DNA of 10,174 nt from a virus (lineage: Duplodnaviria > Heunggongvirae > Uroviricota > Caudoviricetes): the IMG/VR virus record IMGVR_UViG_2548876862_000020. One strand, given 5' to 3'. Positions 1-8,147 of the stretch are shown here, one piece after another (position 1 is the stretch's first letter; each line of letters begins with the position of its first letter). The notes below the pieces were generated by a model. The model saw only the letters and a list, made by a program, of their open reading frames with translations. It was not told the origin of the DNA and did not search any database. Both the position numbers and the translations under genes were made by a program.

Positions 1-1251
1 GTGCTTACCGATACAAAATTAAAAAACCTCAAGCCGCAGGACAAACTGTACAAGGTCTCCGATCGTGACGGGCTGTATGTAGCTGTGCTTACGTCAGGCA
101 CGGTCTCGTTTCGCTATGACTACCGTATCAACGGTCGCCGCGAAACACTGGTAATCGGGCAGTATGGGCGTGACGGTATCAGCCTGGCAGAAGCGCGAGA
201 AGAACTGATTGCTGCAAAGAAGCTGCTTAAAGCAGGCCAGTCGCCGGCTGCGGCTAAACGTGACGGTATCAAAAAGATTCGTGGTGCCGAGACGTTTGCG
301 GTACATACCGACAGTTATATGAAACACGTCATCCTGGCTGACAGTACCCGCGCAATGAAGCAGACGGTGATCGACCGTGACATACTTCCGGTTCTTGGCA
401 ACAAAATGATGGCTGAAATTACCACATCGATGGTTCGTGATTTGTGTGACCGGATTGTCGAACGCGGTGGTCGGGCAACAGCAGTACAGGCCAGGGAAAT
501 CATCAGCAGCGTATACCGTCACGCCAATGACCGTGGTCATGGTTTGTTTAATCCTGCGGCTGACATTAAACCTTCGTCTATCGCCATATTTAAACCACGA
601 GAGCGAACACTGACACCAGAAGAAATTGGCCTGTTCTTCCGCACGCTGGATGCCATTGGTGCTATGGGCACTATGAAAATGGCTTTAAAGCTGGTGCTTA
701 TCACTATGGTTCGTAAAGGCGAATTCACCAATGCAACGTGGGATGAAATAGATTTTAAAAAATGGACATGGACAATTCCTTCAGACCGCATGAAGGGAAG
801 CCGGGCGCACGTTATTTACCTGCCTAAACAGGCACAGGATATATTGGTTGGGTTGCAGATGTGCGCTGGTGGAAGTGAATATCTGGTTCCTGGTCGTTAC
901 AATTTTCGGAAGCCATTATCTAATGCCGCGCTGAACTCTCTGATCGACAGAACGGTGAAAATAATAAATGAAGATGGTGAGCATATTCAGGGCTTCACCG
1001 TACACGATATGCGCCGTACAGCCAGTACGTTGTTGCATGAGGCTGGTTATCCTTCAGACTGGATTGAAAAGGCTATGGCACATGAGCAGAAAGGTGTGCG
1101 CGCCGTATATAACAAAGCGGAATACGCCAGACAGCGCGCCTACATGTTGCAGCAGTGGGCCGATATGATTGATTCCTGGATTAACAGGGAGCATACGGAT
1201 CTGATTCCGTTCTCCCCGTCGAAGTTTGAGAAGTGGATGGCGGGGGAATAA
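1..1251 (+). CDS. int: Phage tyrosine integrase, P4/IntA-like family
   Basis: 416-codon ORF from GTG at position 1. C-terminal region shows tyrosine-recombinase signature (MVRKGEF, HDMRRT, VRAVYNKAEY with candidate catalytic Tyr). N-terminus LTDTKLKNLKP resembles P4-type integrases. Start coincides with the window edge, so a few codons may lie upstream. Confidence 0.9.
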   Translation: MLTDTKLKNLKPQDKLYKVSDRDGLYVAVLTSGTVSFRYDYRINGRRETLVIGQYGRDGISLAEAREELIAAKKLLKAGQSPAAAKRDGIKKIRGAETFAVHTDSYMKHVILADSTRAMKQTVIDRDILPVLGNKMMAEITTSMVRDLCDRIVERGGRATAVQAREIISSVYRHANDRGHGLFNPAADIKPSSIAIFKPRERTLTPEEIGLFFRTLDAIGAMGTMKMALKLVLITMVRKGEFTNATWDEIDFKKWTWTIPSDRMKGSRAHVIYLPKQAQDILVGLQMCAGGSEYLVPGRYNFRKPLSNAALNSLIDRTVKIINEDGEHIQGFTVHDMRRTASTLLHEAGYPSDWIEKAMAHEQKGVRAVYNKAEYARQRAYMLQQWADMIDSWINREHTDLIPFSPSKFEKWMAGE

Positions 1252-1254
1252 CGT

Positions 1255-1449
1255 TTAATAGTTCTGCTGATTTTCTTCCATCTCTGCTTCTGCTGCCAGT
1301 GATTCAATTTTGTTTTCGAATATTGCTGACAGTGTTGCAAATTCAGCATCAGTGACAGCGGGAATTGGAACAAACCTGATCCCGCTGTGTGCAAGCATGT
1401 TTGCAGTTTCAAGGCATTTTCTTAAATCTGCTGGTGATGCCCTGTTCAT
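1255..1449 (-). CDS. Hypothetical small acidic protein (64 aa), translationally coupled to the methyltransferase
   Basis: Internal ATG at 1449-1447 of track ORF 1255..1569 overlaps the methyltransferase TGA stop (1448-1446) as ATGA. GGGAG sits 8-9 nt upstream. Stop lies 3 nt from the convergent int stop. The longer 104-aa form would overlap 120 nt of the methyltransferase gene and was not preferred. Confidence 0.5.
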   Translation of the reverse strand: MNRASPADLRKCLETANMLAHSGIRFVPIPAVTDAEFATLSAIFENKIESLAAEAEMEENQQNY

Positions 1450-2096
1450 GCAGCACGCTCCCGCCCCTGGTTGTCTGTTGGTGACAGCGGAGAATTGCTG
1501 AATGCATTTGTTAATCCGCCAATATCCAACGCGTATCCAGGGTGTAGTTGCACTGCCGGGTCTTCGCACTGATTACCCCAAACATCGAAGCCATGAGACG
1601 ACTGGCGGGCGAATAGTTCAATGCGAGAAACATCGCCTAACAATTGCACAAGTTTTTCACGAACGACATCTGGTTTTCTTGAGTGCTCAAGCCGCGGTGC
1701 GGTAAATGACTGAACGATCCCTGCATTAATGCGCGGAGGTAGTTTTCCCTTTACCGCAAACAGGCAATCTTCACTATTGGCGCGAGTCATGTGTCCCATA
1801 CCCATAACCAGTTTATCTGGTTGTCGACTACCACATTTTATCCACGTGAATCCCTTCATGGTCATCAGACGGAATCCCCAGGCTTCAACAACTTTTAGTG
1901 CTTCGAGTGGTTGTGTTGGCACCCACCACATGGCCAACAGACAGTTTTCATCGGCCAAATCCCACACAGGAAGGCGGCAGATATCCAGCACACTCATAAC
2001 CGGATATTTAAAACCGGCACCGCGATTACCATCTGCGGCTTTATCCCGGTATACCCAGGGTGGATCTGCATAGATTAGCGTGTATTTCTTAGTCAT
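1446..2096 (-). CDS. Orphan N6-adenine DNA methyltransferase, MT-A70 family
   Basis: 216-aa ORF with N-terminal IYADPPW (DPPW catalytic motif of MT-A70-type amino-methyltransferases). No adjacent restriction endonuclease gene. Lies in the prophage left arm, as do Dam-like methylases of Stx-type phages. Confidence 0.85.
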   Translation of the reverse strand: MTKKYTLIYADPPWVYRDKAADGNRGAGFKYPVMSVLDICRLPVWDLADENCLLAMWWVPTQPLEALKVVEAWGFRLMTMKGFTWIKCGSRQPDKLVMGMGHMTRANSEDCLFAVKGKLPPRINAGIVQSFTAPRLEHSRKPDVVREKLVQLLGDVSRIELFARQSSHGFDVWGNQCEDPAVQLHPGYALDIGGLTNAFSNSPLSPTDNQGRERAA

Positions 2097-2388
2097 AAAC
2101 CACCCCGCAACATCCTATGCCGCTATAGTCGCCACGGCGAAGGCCGTTACCTTTTGTGATACATTGGTCCCTGCGAACCGCGATCCTTGCACGCTCAACA
2201 TCACCAGAAGCAACATCCATACACTGAAGCCAAAGGTGGGCAGCAATGCGGAACTGCCCTTTTTTCTCTCTTTCAATCGCGCGTTTTTCGATCTCTATCG
2301 CCGCAGGAGTAACGGCAACAACCTTTGAAGGGCTGCGCATTGAAACCTTGTTCATGTGATATTTTTCAAGTCGGCTTAACTTTCTCAC
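2089..2388 (-). CDS. Hypothetical basic protein (99 aa) with C-terminal Cys cluster; first gene of the methyltransferase block
   Basis: ORF with GTG start at 2388 preceded by GAGAGGG. Its 3' end overlaps the methyltransferase start by 8 nt. Arg/Lys-rich, ends in GIGCCGVVYD. Family not recognised with confidence (possibly ANR-like small regulator). Confidence 0.5.
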   Translation of the reverse strand: MRKLSRLEKYHMNKVSMRSPSKVVAVTPAAIEIEKRAIEREKKGQFRIAAHLWLQCMDVASGDVERARIAVRRDQCITKGNGLRRGDYSGIGCCGVVYD

Positions 2389-2497
2389 TTAATCCAACCC
2401 TCTCTGAAAATTAATGCCAGCAGATAAAGCCATGCTGAAACAGAGGCCAGGAATAAGTACCATCCTGACCATTTGCTCCAGTGCCTTAGCAGCACAC

Positions 2498-2746
2498 TCA
2501 TGCCGCGTTGCTCACAGGACGATATACACGTTGCTGAACAGGAGGTTTTTTACCCTGGAACTCTGCCGGGCTTGCTGCCTGACGTTCATCAAGCCAACGC
2601 TCAACTTCATCACGGTTCCATGCGCAGCGTTTGTCAGTGATATACCAGCGTTTAGGAAATTCCCCTGCGCGCTCCATACGGTCGATAGTGCTCCATGACA
2701 GTGGCACCACCGCCAGGAGTTCCTTCTTACCTAATGCACCTTTCAT
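2498..2746 (-). CDS. AlpA-family HTH protein (prophage regulatory / excisionase-like)
   Basis: 82-aa ORF with ATG at 2746 preceded by AGAGAGG. Segment LLAVVPLSWSTIDRMERAGEFPKRWYITDKRCAWNRDEVERW matches the AlpA/Vis-type winged-HTH pattern. Confidence 0.7.
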   Translation of the reverse strand: MKGALGKKELLAVVPLSWSTIDRMERAGEFPKRWYITDKRCAWNRDEVERWLDERQAASPAEFQGKKPPVQQRVYRPVSNAA

Positions 2747-2795
2747 AAATACCTCTCTTGGTTGCAGTGCGGCGCGCGTGGCGCCGCGGTGGTGG

Positions 2796-3677
2796 TTACA
2801 TAGATGTTTCGTTTAATTCTTCCCGACGAACGCTGTAAACGTCGGTGGCTTTTGCCAGCAGTTCGTCATCATCTGAAAGTTTTTGTGCAATGTATTTGTA
2901 AGCCTTATCCAGTTCGGAGACAGTGCTGTAATTCATCGCTGCGCTGGTAAAGGCCATCAGCATTTCTTCTGGATCACGGCTATCCGCTTTACGCGTTTGC
3001 TCATCATGCTTTTTCGCTGGTTTAGCGTTGATCAGACTGTTCATTCCCGCAGCAGTAGTCGTTTGCGGAGTAATGTCTCGCTCAACGCGCGGTGCCGTTT
3101 CCTGTAATTCGTCAGGGGTGTAAACACCGAGAAGCACATCAGGAGCGTGCAGGCGAGCCCATCGTTTCGTGCAAAGATAGGCAAGCTGCTGGCGCGGATC
3201 CTGTTCCCACAATGGAGAGTTACGCACTCCGGCTTGCGCCATACTGATGGTAAGCTCACGGGGTTCTGCTTCTCCTTTAAGAACTGCTGACACAGTTACC
3301 GTCAGATTCGGTGATTTATCTGTTTTGCCGTTAACATTCGACCAGTCACCGCTCCAGCGATAATTCAGGCGTGTCGCTAGCAGGCTGGAAGAGGATACGA
3401 CCGCGTTTACCAACTGTGCTTCGTAGCCTAACGTTCCGTTTACCACATGCGTTTTCTGCGCCACGGCGAAAGGGTTCATTCCCCACTGTGCCGCCTGCAT
3501 GGTCACCGCCAGACAATCGGAAGGTTTGCCTTCAAGATGTTTCGGTACAGTCGCTTTGCTTTGTGACATCAACTCCGCGAAACGCACCAGTTGATTCATG
3601 CCCTCGGGGCTGAAGATTGCCGCAGCAGTGCCTACAGTTGCGCCTGGTTGTGATGTGATTGCGATATCATTGCTCAT
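2796..3677 (-). CDS. recT: RecT/Bet-family single-strand annealing recombinase
   Basis: 293-aa ORF. Segments MQAAQWGMNPF and RVERDITP resemble lambda Bet / RecT. Start ATG overlaps the upstream exonuclease stop as ATGA (3677-3674). Confidence 0.85.
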   Translation of the reverse strand: MSNDIAITSQPGATVGTAAAIFSPEGMNQLVRFAELMSQSKATVPKHLEGKPSDCLAVTMQAAQWGMNPFAVAQKTHVVNGTLGYEAQLVNAVVSSSSLLATRLNYRWSGDWSNVNGKTDKSPNLTVTVSAVLKGEAEPRELTISMAQAGVRNSPLWEQDPRQQLAYLCTKRWARLHAPDVLLGVYTPDELQETAPRVERDITPQTTTAAGMNSLINAKPAKKHDEQTRKADSRDPEEMLMAFTSAAMNYSTVSELDKAYKYIAQKLSDDDELLAKATDVYSVRREELNETSM

Positions 3678-4495
3678 ACATACATATCCTGTTTACGTGC
3701 CCAGTCAGGGCGTTTAATAATTTCCACTCCGCCCCATTCATCGTTGATGCGGCATTCGTGATAGGTATTCAGATCCCGGCGGAACAGAGCGTGCCCGGCA
3801 TCGACATCCTGCGCATCCAGCTCGAACACGCGTACCGGATACCGACCACAATCAATGCTTTCGCTCACGGCAAGAAAGAAAAAACCATGCGTCTGACCAG
3901 TAACCCTCATTGCGCCTTCGCGGTACATTGCGTCCTGCACGTGGTAGCGGAATTCCTCGATGTGGCGTGCAAAACGGTCCATATCTGCAACCTTTTTCAC
4001 GTCGACGATCACGTTGTGCTCGTTCAGCCATTTGTCTGGACGAATGCGGCACAACTCACCAGTATCTTCATCGTTCCAGTACATTGATGCTTCGCAGTAA
4101 CCAGGTGCTTCCAGCATCCAGCGTGCCGCCGGGTGAGCCATTGCGCTATCACGCATCAGCTCCAGTTTCCGCCACTGCTCGGCATCAAGTACCGTAATCC
4201 CCATATCCGCCACATCACGAAGAAATGCCTCTTCGTCAGCTTTACCTTGTTTCGTCCGACGATCGAATTTCGGTGAAACAATGAAGCGTTTGTCGAACTC
4301 TCCAGGCTCCAGAAGCAGACAGTGCAATGCGGTTCCCATATCCAGTGCAGACTTTTTCTCTTCGTCTTCTGGTGCTGCCTGAACCCATTTAAGAAGCGCC
4401 GGATTCTTGGCAACCATGTCCAGTTGCGACTTACTCACGCCGTCACCTGCGTGGTAGTCTTCGTTGCTGATGTCGAAATAAATTCCCGGTTTCAT
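3674..4495 (-). CDS. RecE-like short-form exonuclease (exonuclease VIII-like, PD-(D/E)XK fold)
   Basis: 273-aa ORF starting MKPGIYFDISNEDYHAGDGVSKSQLD, typical of prophage short exonuclease VIII-like proteins. Candidate D...E-x-K nuclease motif around RPDKW...VDVKK. Paired and translationally coupled with recT. Confidence 0.8.
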   Translation of the reverse strand: MKPGIYFDISNEDYHAGDGVSKSQLDMVAKNPALLKWVQAAPEDEEKKSALDMGTALHCLLLEPGEFDKRFIVSPKFDRRTKQGKADEEAFLRDVADMGITVLDAEQWRKLELMRDSAMAHPAARWMLEAPGYCEASMYWNDEDTGELCRIRPDKWLNEHNVIVDVKKVADMDRFARHIEEFRYHVQDAMYREGAMRVTGQTHGFFFLAVSESIDCGRYPVRVFELDAQDVDAGHALFRRDLNTYHECRINDEWGGVEIIKRPDWARKQDMYV

Positions 4496-4965: not shown

Positions 4966-5042
4966 TTACCGTTGAGGTAATGATTATGCGTATCTGGTTT
5001 GATGTCAATAGATATGAGTTAAAAAAATTACCCATAAGGTAA
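4966..5042 (-). promoter_or_regulatory. pL-like promoter flanked by two operator palindromes
   Basis: Minus strand reads operator TTACCTTATGGGTAA (5042-5028), 19 bp, -35 TTGACA (5008-5003), 17-bp spacer, -10 AATCAT (4985-4980), operator TTACCTCAACGGTAA (4980-4966). Operator centres are 62 bp apart. Confidence 0.6.
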
Positions 5043-5052
5043 TCTTGCTGGC

Positions 5053-5079
5053 AATAAAAAAGCCGCCATGAGGCGGCTT
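5053..5079 (-). terminator. Rho-independent terminator downstream of the repressor gene
   Basis: GC stem gccgcc (5062-5067) / ggcggc (5072-5077), extendable by 2 A-T pairs, with 4-nt loop. Followed on the minus strand by UUUUAUU. Lies 21 bp after the repressor stop. Confidence 0.7.
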
Positions 5080-5099: not shown

Positions 5100-5708
5100 T
5101 TATTGTTTGCTTTTTTCGTTCTGGTTGATGACAAATTCAATGTAACTTTCGATCTTTGCTTTCTCGGTTTCGGGTAACAATGCGTAGCGCGAGCGGTCAT
5201 AGTTGATAGTCGCAGGGTCGTGCGGGTGAATCAGTAGTTCATATCCGTGACGCCCGAATGCGGATGCAACATTCTCCAGGGTGGAAATGGAAACGCTGAC
5301 CTCATTGTTTAACAGGCGGCTGATTGTCACCTGGGCGACGCCGGATGCGCGGTGAAGTTTTCCCTGCGTTGAAAGGTCGCGGCTTTCGCTCATCCAGCGT
5401 TCCAGGTTGTGAGCCGCCAGCTGACCAATGTCGCTTGGTCCGACAGGCTGAAAACCTTCCTGAGAAAGCGAGCGATCGATATCAAGCCAGTTACGGGGTT
5501 TATTGGCGGCAGCTTCAATTTTTCGCGCAACCTGGTCGCCGATAACCTTCTTGCCAAGAGCCCAGCGGTTTACCAGATTTGCCTGAGTTCCAAGTTTTTC
5601 TGCCATCCGCGTCTGAACACCATTGAATTCACGGTCGATCAAGTCGTTGAGATTTTGCCTGCGGACGTCCTGGATACTTTTCATTTTCTGGAAAATCGCC
5701 TCATACAT
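5100..5708 (-). CDS. Prophage immunity repressor (CI-like position) with two HTH domains and no apparent S24 peptidase domain
   Basis: 202-aa ORF divergent from the cro-like gene across the operator region. N-terminal HTH (QTRMAEKLGTQANLVNRWALGKK) and a second XRE-type HTH (SGVAQVTISRLLNNEVSVSISTLENVASAFG). No room or motif for a LexA-like Ser/Lys autocleavage domain. Confidence 0.75.
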   Translation of the reverse strand: MYEAIFQKMKSIQDVRRQNLNDLIDREFNGVQTRMAEKLGTQANLVNRWALGKKVIGDQVARKIEAAANKPRNWLDIDRSLSQEGFQPVGPSDIGQLAAHNLERWMSESRDLSTQGKLHRASGVAQVTISRLLNNEVSVSISTLENVASAFGRHGYELLIHPHDPATINYDRSRYALLPETEKAKIESYIEFVINQNEKSKQ

Positions 5709-5739: not shown

Positions 5740-5813
5740 TTACCCAACAGGTAAATGCACCCCATAGGTAACTATCCTTGATTTTTGTTACCTTATGGGT
5801 GAATATTTATTAT
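5740..5813. promoter_or_regulatory. OR-like operator/promoter region between repressor and cro-like genes
   Basis: Three palindromes: 5740-5754 ttacccaacaggtaa, 5757-5771 gcaccccataggtaa (degenerate), 5788-5802 ttaccttatgggtga. Candidate pR: -35 TTGTTA (5785-5790), 17 bp, -10 TATTAT (5808-5813). Candidate pRM on minus strand: -10 AATCAT (5724-5719), a few nt before the repressor ATG. Confidence 0.55.
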
Positions 5814-5838: not shown

Positions 5839-6069
5839 ATGAGCGATAACGGACATTTCGATTTCAAAAAGCACTGGCTTGCACTTACTCCGGATGAGCG
5901 TGAAGCCTTCGCACAGGAAGCCGGAACGACGAGTCACTATATCCAGACTCACTTAACAGGTAAGCGCAAAATGCCAGGTAAAGTATTGATGAATGGGCTT
6001 TTTAAAGCCTGTAAATCAAGACAATGGTTGCGCTCAAAAGCAGAACTGGCATACTTCTTCTACTCATGA
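5839..6069 (+). CDS. Cro-like HTH regulator (YdaS/Cro-type)
   Basis: 76-aa ORF divergent from the repressor. HTH-like segment LTPDEREAFAQEAGTTSHYIQTHLTGKRKMP. Occupies the cro position. Confidence 0.65.
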   Translation: MSDNGHFDFKKHWLALTPDEREAFAQEAGTTSHYIQTHLTGKRKMPGKVLMNGLFKACKSRQWLRSKAELAYFFYS

Positions 6070-6090: not shown

Positions 6091-6114
6091 AGACCGCCAT
6101 CCGGCGGTCTTTTC
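6091..6114 (+). terminator. Intrinsic terminator after the cro-like gene (tR1-like position)
   Basis: Stem agaccgcc (6091-6098) / ggcggtct (6103-6110), loop atcc, followed by TTTT (6111-6114). Confidence 0.6.
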
Positions 6115-6435: not shown

Positions 6436-7251
6436 ATGAGCAGACATGCAACAGATTGGGCCTGGGAGACAGATCCAGGTAGCTCGTCATTAAAGCTCAT
6501 ACTGCTCTCGATGGCTGACAGAGCCGATGAATATAACCTCTGCTACCCCAGCATAGAACGCCTCGTTAAAGACACTTGCCTGAATAAAAAAACCGTACAG
6601 GCCGGGCTTATATCGCTCATGAAAATGGGGCTTATTTCAGATACCGGAGAGAGAAAGGGTGCGACGAAAAGAGTGCGGGTTTTCTCTCTTAATATAACCA
6701 AAAACGGGAACATTAAAGGCAACCGGGAGGGAGGTAATGAACCCAAAAACGGTAATGTTACCGAAAACGGGAATATACCCAAAAACGGGATGTTGAATAT
6801 ACCCAAAAACGGGATGTTGAATGATCCCAAAAACGGGATCCAGAACCAGTCATATAACCAGTCATTTAACCAAGAGAGGGAGAGCAGGACAAAAACCGGG
6901 GATTCTGTTCCTCATGACCCCGGCGCAAACAACGCCGTGATGAATAACTTTGTTCCTCCTGGTGGGCTAGGGCAATTAGGCAAATTTGTCATGCATGAAC
7001 AATGGCAACCATCAGATGACTTTCTTCGGAAAAGCTCATTGCAGGGGATCTACCTGGACAGTCTGCCAACGGCACAGGAACTTGCAGAGTTCAGAATTTA
7101 CTGGATGGCTGAGGGTAAGGCATACCATCAGGCACAGTGGGAGCAGAAGCTGGCAAGGCGGCTGCAGATTAGCAGACAGAAGCAATCAACATTACCTGAT
7201 AACAACGTTCCGCACTGGAACAGCCCTGAAGCGTGGGAGGATTTCTTGTGA
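6436..7251 (+). CDS. Replication initiator, O-like (winged-helix N-domain, repeat linker, C-domain)
   Basis: 271-aa ORF, ATG 6436 preceded by GGAG at 7 nt. Contains DNA iterons internally. Immediately followed by and overlapped with a lambda P-like gene. Confidence 0.8.
   Translation: MSRHATDWAWETDPGSSSLKLILLSMADRADEYNLCYPSIERLVKDTCLNKKTVQAGLISLMKMGLISDTGERKGATKRVRVFSLNITKNGNIKGNREGGNEPKNGNVTENGNIPKNGMLNIPKNGMLNDPKNGIQNQSYNQSFNQERESRTKTGDSVPHDPGANNAVMNNFVPPGGLGQLGKFVMHEQWQPSDDFLRKSSLQGIYLDSLPTAQELAEFRIYWMAEGKAYHQAQWEQKLARRLQISRQKQSTLPDNNVPHWNSPEAWEDFL
6698..6840 (+). repeat. Origin-like iterons inside the O-like gene
   Basis: Six copies of core CCAAAAACGG(G/T)A at 6698, 6743, 6762, 6778, 6802, 6826. 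Two exact 24-bp tandem units at 6775-6798 and 6799-6822. Followed by tandem CAGTCAT(A/T)TAACC at 6847-6871. Encodes the low-complexity PKNG peptide repeat. Confidence 0.75.
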
Positions 7252-8058: not shown

Positions 8059-8070
8059 ACGTCTTGATAA

Positions 8071-8147
8071 TTACCTGTTGGGTAATAAAATATTCTAAAA
8101 TCTATTGATTTCGTGTCTTATGTGGTTTTTAATTACCTCAGGGGTAA
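8071..8147 (+). promoter_or_regulatory. Third operator-flanked promoter (p3) upstream of the DUF1064-like gene
   Basis: Operator TTACCTGTTGGGTAA (8071-8085), 19 bp, -35 TTGATT (8105-8110), 17-bp spacer, -10 TTTAAT (8128-8133), operator TTACCTCAGGGGTAA (8133-8147). Same spacing as pL. Confidence 0.55.

Follow-up and report, generated by a model that had tools for sequence, protein, structure and literature searches.

The closest described precedents for the repressor analysed here are those of Salmonella prophages. In prophages of this kind, including SPC32H, cleavage of LexA leads to the production of an antirepressor, which in turn inhibits the phage repressor by protein-protein contact, as summarized in PMC7380047 with reference to Kim & Ryu 2013. 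The account of SPC32H given in PMC9638917 has the repressor, Rep, binding DNA as a tetramer in which the DNA-binding pairs come from different dimers; the antirepressor, Ant, is itself tetrameric and binds two Rep dimers, which breaks the Rep tetramer. SPC32H Rep is described in PMC9986798 as an assembly of an N-terminal DNA-binding domain, a middle dimerization domain and a C-terminal tetramerization/Ant-binding domain with a p53-like 'TetDloop' fold, a tetramerization fold that the same source links to DNA looping.

We analysed a 10,174-nucleotide stretch of DNA (hereafter the window) and found a gene that very probably encodes the immunity repressor of a Uetakevirus prophage, orthologous to SPC32H Rep and inactivated by a LexA-controlled Ant. 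The Rep system is thus one that is already known. An earlier, sequence-only reading of the window had described a repressor with two helix-turn-helix (HTH) regions and no autocleavage domain, and had proposed that induction would need an antirepressor encoded elsewhere; its observation is confirmed and its interpretation is supported by the comparisons below.

The early region of a Uetakevirus prophage

The final 10,174 bases of contig AIBM01000227.1 (assembly GCA_000446785.2) match the window exactly, and the sequence there is the left portion of a prophage that lies beside guaA and is integrated at the 3' end of that gene. From the left end it carries the integrase gene and then, on the minus strand, genes for DUF1382, MT-A70 methylase, PerC-like, AlpA-like and RecT proteins, followed on the same strand by a PD-(D/E)XK nuclease gene, two small genes and rep. 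Beyond rep, the plus strand carries a cro-like gene, a 66-aa gene, DnaT/O-like and lambda P-like genes, a DUF1064 gene and further genes. Together these genes make up the early region of the phiV10/epsilon15-like podophages of the genus Uetakevirus. The contig stops within the early-right region of the prophage, some 4.5 kb rightward of rep, and the late genes, ant, the tailspike gene and attR must therefore be on other contigs. Of 5,426 complete E. coli genomes, 316 carry at least 80% of the window, which makes the module a common one. Comparison of the window with Rfam gave no match at gathering thresholds.

Some features of this early region stand apart from the immunity genes. The RecT (293 aa) and PD-(D/E)XK nuclease (273 aa) proteins are encoded at 2796-4495 on the minus strand by separate genes with a 4-nt overlap, where the phiV10 record has one ORF in which RecE and RecT are fused. 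Within the DnaT/O-like gene, at 6733-6839, there are about five iteron-like repeats (CCCAAAAACGG[G/T]A; periods 18 and 24 bp) that read as a repeated 'PKNG' in the protein. These repeats are probably the phage replication origin, situated inside the initiator gene as in lambda O.

The longest ORF at the repressor locus, at 5100..5708 on the minus strand, encodes 202 aa. All 29 of the 29 aligned homologues start with MKSI, which corresponds to Met9 of this ORF, and the same start is found in the phiV10 and RefSeq annotations and in SPC32H Rep. Because the homologues all begin there, we take Met9 as the start of rep, and the coding sequence is probably 5100..5684 on the minus strand, specifying 194 aa. 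The eight extra N-terminal residues of the 202-aa ORF were rejected as part of the protein, since every homologue aligns from Met9.

The rep gene is flanked by the RecT/exonuclease operon on one side and the O/P-like replication genes on the other and is divergent from a Cro-like gene of 76 aa (5839..6069, plus strand), the product of which matches phrog_35 'transcriptional repressor' with an E value of 8.7e-13. A terminator lies 3' of the Cro-like gene at 6091-6110. An intrinsic terminator (5060..5079, minus strand), consisting of an 8-bp GC-rich stem and a run of T, lies 3' of rep, where the phiV10 record also has one annotated. The assignment of the repressor to the CI position, made initially from the sequence alone, is thus borne out by the divergent Cro-like gene and the neighbouring operons.

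Identity and domain architecture of Rep

A phmmer search of the PDB matched Rep residues 9-198 to 5D50_A, which is SPC32H Rep in the Rep-Ant complex (E 2.5e-42), and also matched Rep to 5D4Z, comprising SPC32H Rep 92-198 (E 3.9e-20). By tblastn, Rep shows about 43% identity to the repressors of SPC32H, epsilon15 and SPN1S, over 96% of the protein for SPC32H and epsilon15, and 99% identity to those of phiV10, ZX5, PAS61, TL-2011b and others. It differs from phiV10 gp40 by one residue and from Rep of the E. coli 90-3040 prophage by two. The phiV10 record describes gp40 as having 'two helix-turn-helix motifs; similar to putative repressor epsilon15p38', and the epsilon15 record in turn cites an HHpred match to 5d50_A; the orthologue is labelled a repressor there and in the SPC32H record.

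Other labels have been attached to proteins of this type. The phage BP9 record calls its Rep homologue 'antidote protein VapI', and Rep itself gives sub-threshold NCBIfam matches to HigA, HipB and RstR models, as might be expected if it were some other XRE-type regulator or a HigA/VapI-like antitoxin instead of an immunity repressor. However, NCBIfam returned only sub-threshold, uninformative matches for both Rep and Ant, and no toxin gene is adjacent to rep. The gene is instead found at the CI position, with a divergent Cro-like gene and predicted operators on both sides, and its orthologue is a repressor in the epsilon15 and SPC32H records. Lytic growth is also blocked when the ZX5 orthologue (ORF21) is overexpressed: free phage was abolished, endolysin mRNA was cut by 99.99%, and the reduction exceeded 99.9% for endolysin and holin mRNA (PMC9782041). 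We therefore regard a regulator or antitoxin of another kind as barely credible and continue to treat Rep as the immunity repressor.

Profile searches place two HTH domains in the protein. Pfam identified HTH_3 at residues 114-155 of the 202-aa ORF (E 1.4e-9, above the gathering score), overlaid by HTH_26 at residues 112-152, and a Cro-like HTH (YdaS_toxin) at residues 29-69 that was sub-threshold (E 6e-4); both halves of Rep are also covered by PHROG families of phage repressors. These positions agree with the two HTH regions that had been placed at about residues 30-75 and 120-152 in the sequence-only reading. That reading had further held that the remaining sequence was too short for an S24 peptidase domain and that no Ala-Gly cleavage site was present, and had suggested an HMM search as a check. 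This search recovered the HTH domains and no Peptidase_S24 in Rep even at E≤1. The precomputed Pfam domains of 89 Rep homologues likewise include no Peptidase_S24. Only about 45 residues remain after the second HTH, and AG, CG and GG dipeptides are absent from the whole of the Rep sequence, so each of these earlier observations stands.

An AlphaFold model of Rep, built from 30 homologues, has a mean pLDDT of 81 and consists of five-helix bundles at residues 4-59 and 85-151 (194-aa numbering), a disordered linker between them and a long C-terminal helix at residues 172-193; the strand of the C-terminal module is unformed in this monomer model. When the model was used as a Foldseek query, the top 12 matches were to 5D50 and 5D4Z, followed by generic XRE/HTH_3 domains. 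The model and these matches give Rep the SPC32H-type architecture of an N-terminal HTH, a middle HTH-like domain and a C-terminal module, which can be considered in turn.

The first, a five-helix HTH domain at the N terminus (about residues 1-62 in 194-aa numbering; 5499..5684, minus strand), is presumed to bind DNA. It shows 54% identity to SPC32H Rep with conservation of the NLVNRW helix, and the DNA-binding role is assigned to the corresponding domain of SPC32H Rep in the description given by PMC9986798. A variable, low-confidence linker follows (residues about 63-84; 5433..5498, minus strand), with pLDDT below 50 at residues 75-81; it is the least conserved stretch of the homologue alignment and shows 29% identity to SPC32H Rep. 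The second, HTH_3-like five-helix domain (residues about 85-152; 5229..5432, minus strand) aligns to 5D4Z, that is, to SPC32H Rep 92-198, at 32% identity. On this alignment it appears to correspond to the middle dimerization domain of SPC32H Rep and not to a second reader of DNA. The C-terminal module (residues about 153-194; 5103..5228, minus strand) has as its SPC32H counterpart the tetramerization/Ant-binding domain (CAD, 'TetDloop'). The C-terminal 42 residues show 52% identity to SPC32H Rep, and by analogy with that protein the last 40 or so residues appear to form a separate tetramerization/Ant-binding module as opposed to left-over sequence.

This architecture bears on how the repressor is removed at induction. 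Proteolysis is the default model for lambdoid prophages, as exemplified by lambda CI and LexA, and the disordered linker at about residues 63-84 could be accessible to a protease; Rep might accordingly be imagined to undergo RecA-stimulated self-cleavage at a cryptic site, or to be degraded by a host protease. Against this, the S24 domain is missing at E≤1, as are the Ala-Gly and Cys-Gly dipeptides, and the C-terminal part of the protein folds like that of SPC32H Rep. Self-cleavage is thereby excluded as far as sequence can exclude it, and we consider inactivation of Rep by proteolysis of either kind to be highly improbable. Inactivation by a LexA-controlled Ant remains our preferred reading.

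Predicted operators and promoters

The window is enriched in palindromes of the form TTACC-N5-GGTAA. With up to two mismatches allowed, we found 11 copies where 2.9 were expected, and 0 of 200 shuffled sequences reached 11. The copies are concentrated in three regions of the window. By analogy with the Salmonella phages, Rep is inferred to bind the ATTACC-N5-GGTAAT palindromes of the window. Such operators are prior knowledge, since the epsilon15 GenBank record already annotates repressor-binding sites: seven copies of the motif appear there as 'repressor' protein_bind features, including a pair spaced by 62 bp at the place corresponding to the OL-like region described here. In the window, predicted ATTACC-N5-GGTAAT operators lie on both sides of rep at its immunity-region position.

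To the left of rep, the OL-like region (4966..5042) contains two perfect palindromes, at 4966-4980 and 5028-5042, that are 62 bp apart and flank a strong predicted PL-like promoter. This promoter (TTGACA-17-AATCAT; 4980..5008, minus strand) is predicted from a consensus scan with 10/12 matches and would drive the leftward recombination operon. The OR-like region, between rep and the cro-like gene (5740..5802), contains three TTACC-N5-GGTAA palindromes: a perfect one at 5740-5754, one with two mismatches at 5757-5771, and one with a single mismatch at 5788-5802. The last of these overlaps the predicted PR-like promoter (TTGTTA-17-TATTAT; 5785..5813, plus strand; consensus scan), which would serve the cro-like gene and the replication operon. 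A third operator pair lies at 8064..8147 on the plus strand, with both palindromes perfect (8071-8085 and 8133-8147) and again separated by 62 bp. The pair brackets the predicted promoter TTGATA-16-TAAAAT, before the DUF1064 gene and downstream of the P-like gene, and points to an early-right transcription unit under separate repression.

This arrangement recurs among relatives of the prophage. The spacings in the OR-like region are 17 and 31 bp here, against 17 and 30 bp in both epsilon15 and SPC32H. The motif, with its pairs at 62-63 bp and its spacings of 17 and 30-31 bp, is common to phiV10, SPC32H, epsilon15 and the 90-3040 prophage. These four also have the third operator pair, as well as further copies of the motif in most of their other intergenic regions. 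The motif and the 62-63-bp OL pair were found at the Tyrion and BUCT711 loci too.

A palindrome of the Rep type was also observed in the intergenic region between ant and the tailspike gene, 54 nt upstream of the LexA box, in 8 of the 8 Uetakevirus genomes checked (for example, at 20877-20891 in phiV10 and 20013-20027 in SPC32H). Given this placement, Rep may act on ant, or on the promoter of the tailspike gene, as well. We suggest, tentatively and as less probable than not, that a Rep tetramer loops each 62-bp pair and that Rep, together with LexA, co-represses its own antirepressor or the late region. Were Rep and LexA to co-repress ant, the prophage would be doubly locked, and the appearance of Ant would set off positive feedback.

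The antirepressor and comparison with known systems

The sequence-only reading had recognized no antirepressor gene in the window, and database searches bear this out. A tblastn search of the window with the Ant proteins of SPC32H and phiV10 was empty. No Bro-N, ANT, P22_AR or P22_AR_N domain is present on the Pfam record of the called genes of the identical contig stretch, and scans of eight ORFs agree. This result follows from the extent of the contig, which reaches some 4.5 kb past rep and leaves the position of ant far outside. There is also no perfect CTGT-N8-ACAG LexA box in the window; six boxes with one mismatch were found against 3.7 expected, and at least six occurred in 33 of 200 shuffles, which is not above chance. 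Nothing in the window looks LexA-controlled.

The relatives show where ant would be expected. In SPC32H, ant (86 aa) is divergent from the tailspike gene; at the same position, phiV10 p24 is 88% identical to SPC32H Ant, and the complete, guaA-integrated E. coli 90-3040 prophage has an 85-aa gene with 87% identity. In seven of the eight phages and prophages examined, the start codon of ant is preceded, at a constant offset of about 20 nt, by a CTGT-N8-ACAG LexA box, the perfect boxes being those of phiV10, ZX5, the 90-3040 prophage, SPC32H, epsilon15, Tyrion and BUCT554. Among the phage records, 35 have Ant and 36 have a full-length Rep; BP9, a 138-kb record, is the only one with Rep but no Ant. 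The search for Ant homologues gave about 20 near-identical clusters, with one NCBI-only variant, P0100, coming from an assembly other than GCA_000446785.2. The earlier proposal of a non-cleavable repressor paired with an antirepressor outside the window is therefore in agreement both with published SPC32H Rep and with the LexA-boxed ant of relatives whose Rep is at least 99% identical to that of the window.

The eighth genome, that of Klebsiella phage BUCT711, has its LexA box about 25 nt upstream of ant with one mismatch, a C-to-A change in the first half-site (ATGT...ACAG). Kim and Ryu are said to have found, in 2013, that a single LexA-box mutation causes SPC32N to make Ant constitutively. 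By analogy, BUCT711 might behave like SPC32N, with constitutive Ant.

Taken with the SPC32H literature and the conservation of the protein, these observations point to the following sequence of events. A Rep tetramer, held together by the middle dimerization and C-terminal tetramerization domains, would bind the palindromes through its N-terminal domain and so shut off the PL-like, PR-like and downstream early promoters. Upon DNA damage Rep would stay uncleaved, and RecA-stimulated cleavage of host LexA would instead de-repress the small ant gene (85-86 aa), which prophage gene order would place about 25 kb from rep, divergent from the tailspike gene and outside both the window and the contig. 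Ant would then bind the C-terminal part of Rep and convert the tetramer into dimers, which would be released from DNA to allow the lytic programme. Because Rep of the window shares only about 43% identity with SPC32H Rep, and 32% in the middle domain, the sensitivity of this allele to Ant is inferred by analogy. Ant is highly conserved (60-100% identity) whereas Rep diverges to about 43%, and different Uetakevirus prophages might accordingly be cross-induced by a single Ant, in the way seen with the Gifsy phages.

In phiV10, ZX5 and Tyrion, ant is adjoined by a gene for a Bro-N-type 'anti-repressor' (phiV10 p23, ZX5 ORF4), and it could be argued that this protein, and not the small Ant, is the main inactivator of Rep. 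In ZX5, the Rep of which is 99% identical to that of the window, overexpression of ORF4, the Bro-N protein, brought the prophage titre down from 1e9 to 1e6 and reduced rep mRNA by 75% (PMC9782041). However, that result came from strong overexpression, and no LexA box is tied to the Bro-N gene. The small Ant accompanies Rep in 35 of 36 records, whereas Bro-N does not travel with Rep: the gene is annotated in none of SPC32H, epsilon15 and the complete E. coli 90-3040 prophage, which has the same Rep. Given this absence, the Bro-N 'anti-repressor' would be at best an accessory route, and we judge it improbable as the main one; the small, LexA-controlled Ant is preferred.

The annotation of the two genes in public records is a separate matter. 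Nearly all E. coli phage and genome records list the small Ant homologue as a 'hypothetical protein', and the label 'anti-repressor' sits on the neighbouring Bro-N gene that was tested in the ZX5 paper (in ZX5 the two lie at 1501-1758 and 2074-2769). Many E. coli Uetakevirus records also have a second, weaker tblastn place for Ant, giving 2-3 'places', and this second place may be a partial duplicate beside the Bro-N insertion.

The finding matters little beyond correct annotation, as non-proteolytic, antirepressor-driven induction of SPC32H Rep has already been published (Kim & Ryu 2013, J Virol; Kim et al. 2016, PNAS). Transfer of the SPC32H annotation to the small Ant would nevertheless correct the predicted response of these prophages, some of them in O157 and other STEC, to SOS-inducing antibiotics. 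The only experimental paper on an E. coli member tested the Bro-N protein as antirepressor instead of the small Ant (PMC9782041).

Among known systems, the repressors phiV10 gp40, vB_EcoP_ZX5 ORF21 and those of other E. coli Uetakevirus phages are effectively the same protein as Rep of the window, with nothing substantive different. SPC32H Rep/Ant (PDB 5D50, 5D4Z), epsilon15 gp38 and SPN1S show full-length homology and the same three-part architecture, and SPC32H and epsilon15 resemble the window in gene position, operator half-sites and spacings. The close relatives of the window phage likewise have a small Ant 87-88% identical to that of SPC32H; its gene lies upstream of the tailspike gene, and its LexA box is in the matching position. 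The differences lie in the host, which is E. coli for the window prophage and Salmonella for SPC32H, in the divergence of Rep (about 43% identity, 32% in the middle domain), and in the central 5 bp of the operators, which are of mixed sequence in the window but A/T-rich in the Salmonella phages.

The Gifsy prophages were the precedent named in the sequence-only reading, and only part of that parallel holds. Gifsy-1, Gifsy-2 and Gifsy-3, with the repressors GfoR, GtgR and GfhR and the antirepressors GfoA and GfhA, follow the same logic as Rep-Ant, in that the repressor is non-cleavable and is countered by a small antirepressor under LexA control, the gene for which lies outside the immunity region (Lemire et al. 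2011, PMC3121763). Homology, however, is not part of the likeness. GfoR is a protein of 136 aa with one HTH and is essentially unrelated to Rep; BLASTP of Rep against Gifsy-1 STM2628 aligned 40 residues of weak HTH similarity at 25% identity and 25 bits, no Gifsy record was among the 37 tblastn matches of Rep, and membership of Rep in a Gifsy-type family was rejected. The ant gene of the window-phage relatives is also unrelated to gfoA, and the resemblance is one of functional analogy only. According to the description in PMC9638917, Rep and Ant further differ from the Gifsy proteins in acting as tetramers. The homologous precedent is therefore the Rep-Ant pair of epsilon15 and SPC32H.

With lambda CI, P22 C2 and LexA, Rep has in common a genome position, an N-terminal HTH, a divergent cro-like gene and operators on both sides. 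Unlike these proteins, Rep is without an S24 domain, a cleavage site or a Ser/Lys dyad, and its oligomerization is assigned to an HTH-like domain and a short C-terminal module. The fold of the latter in SPC32H Rep is, as presented in PMC9986798, common to Rco of the Bacillus plasmid pLS20 and to the p53 tetramerization domain. Rep differs from Rco in having an extra middle dimerization domain, and the 62-bp operator pairs would suit one Rep tetramer bridging two sites.
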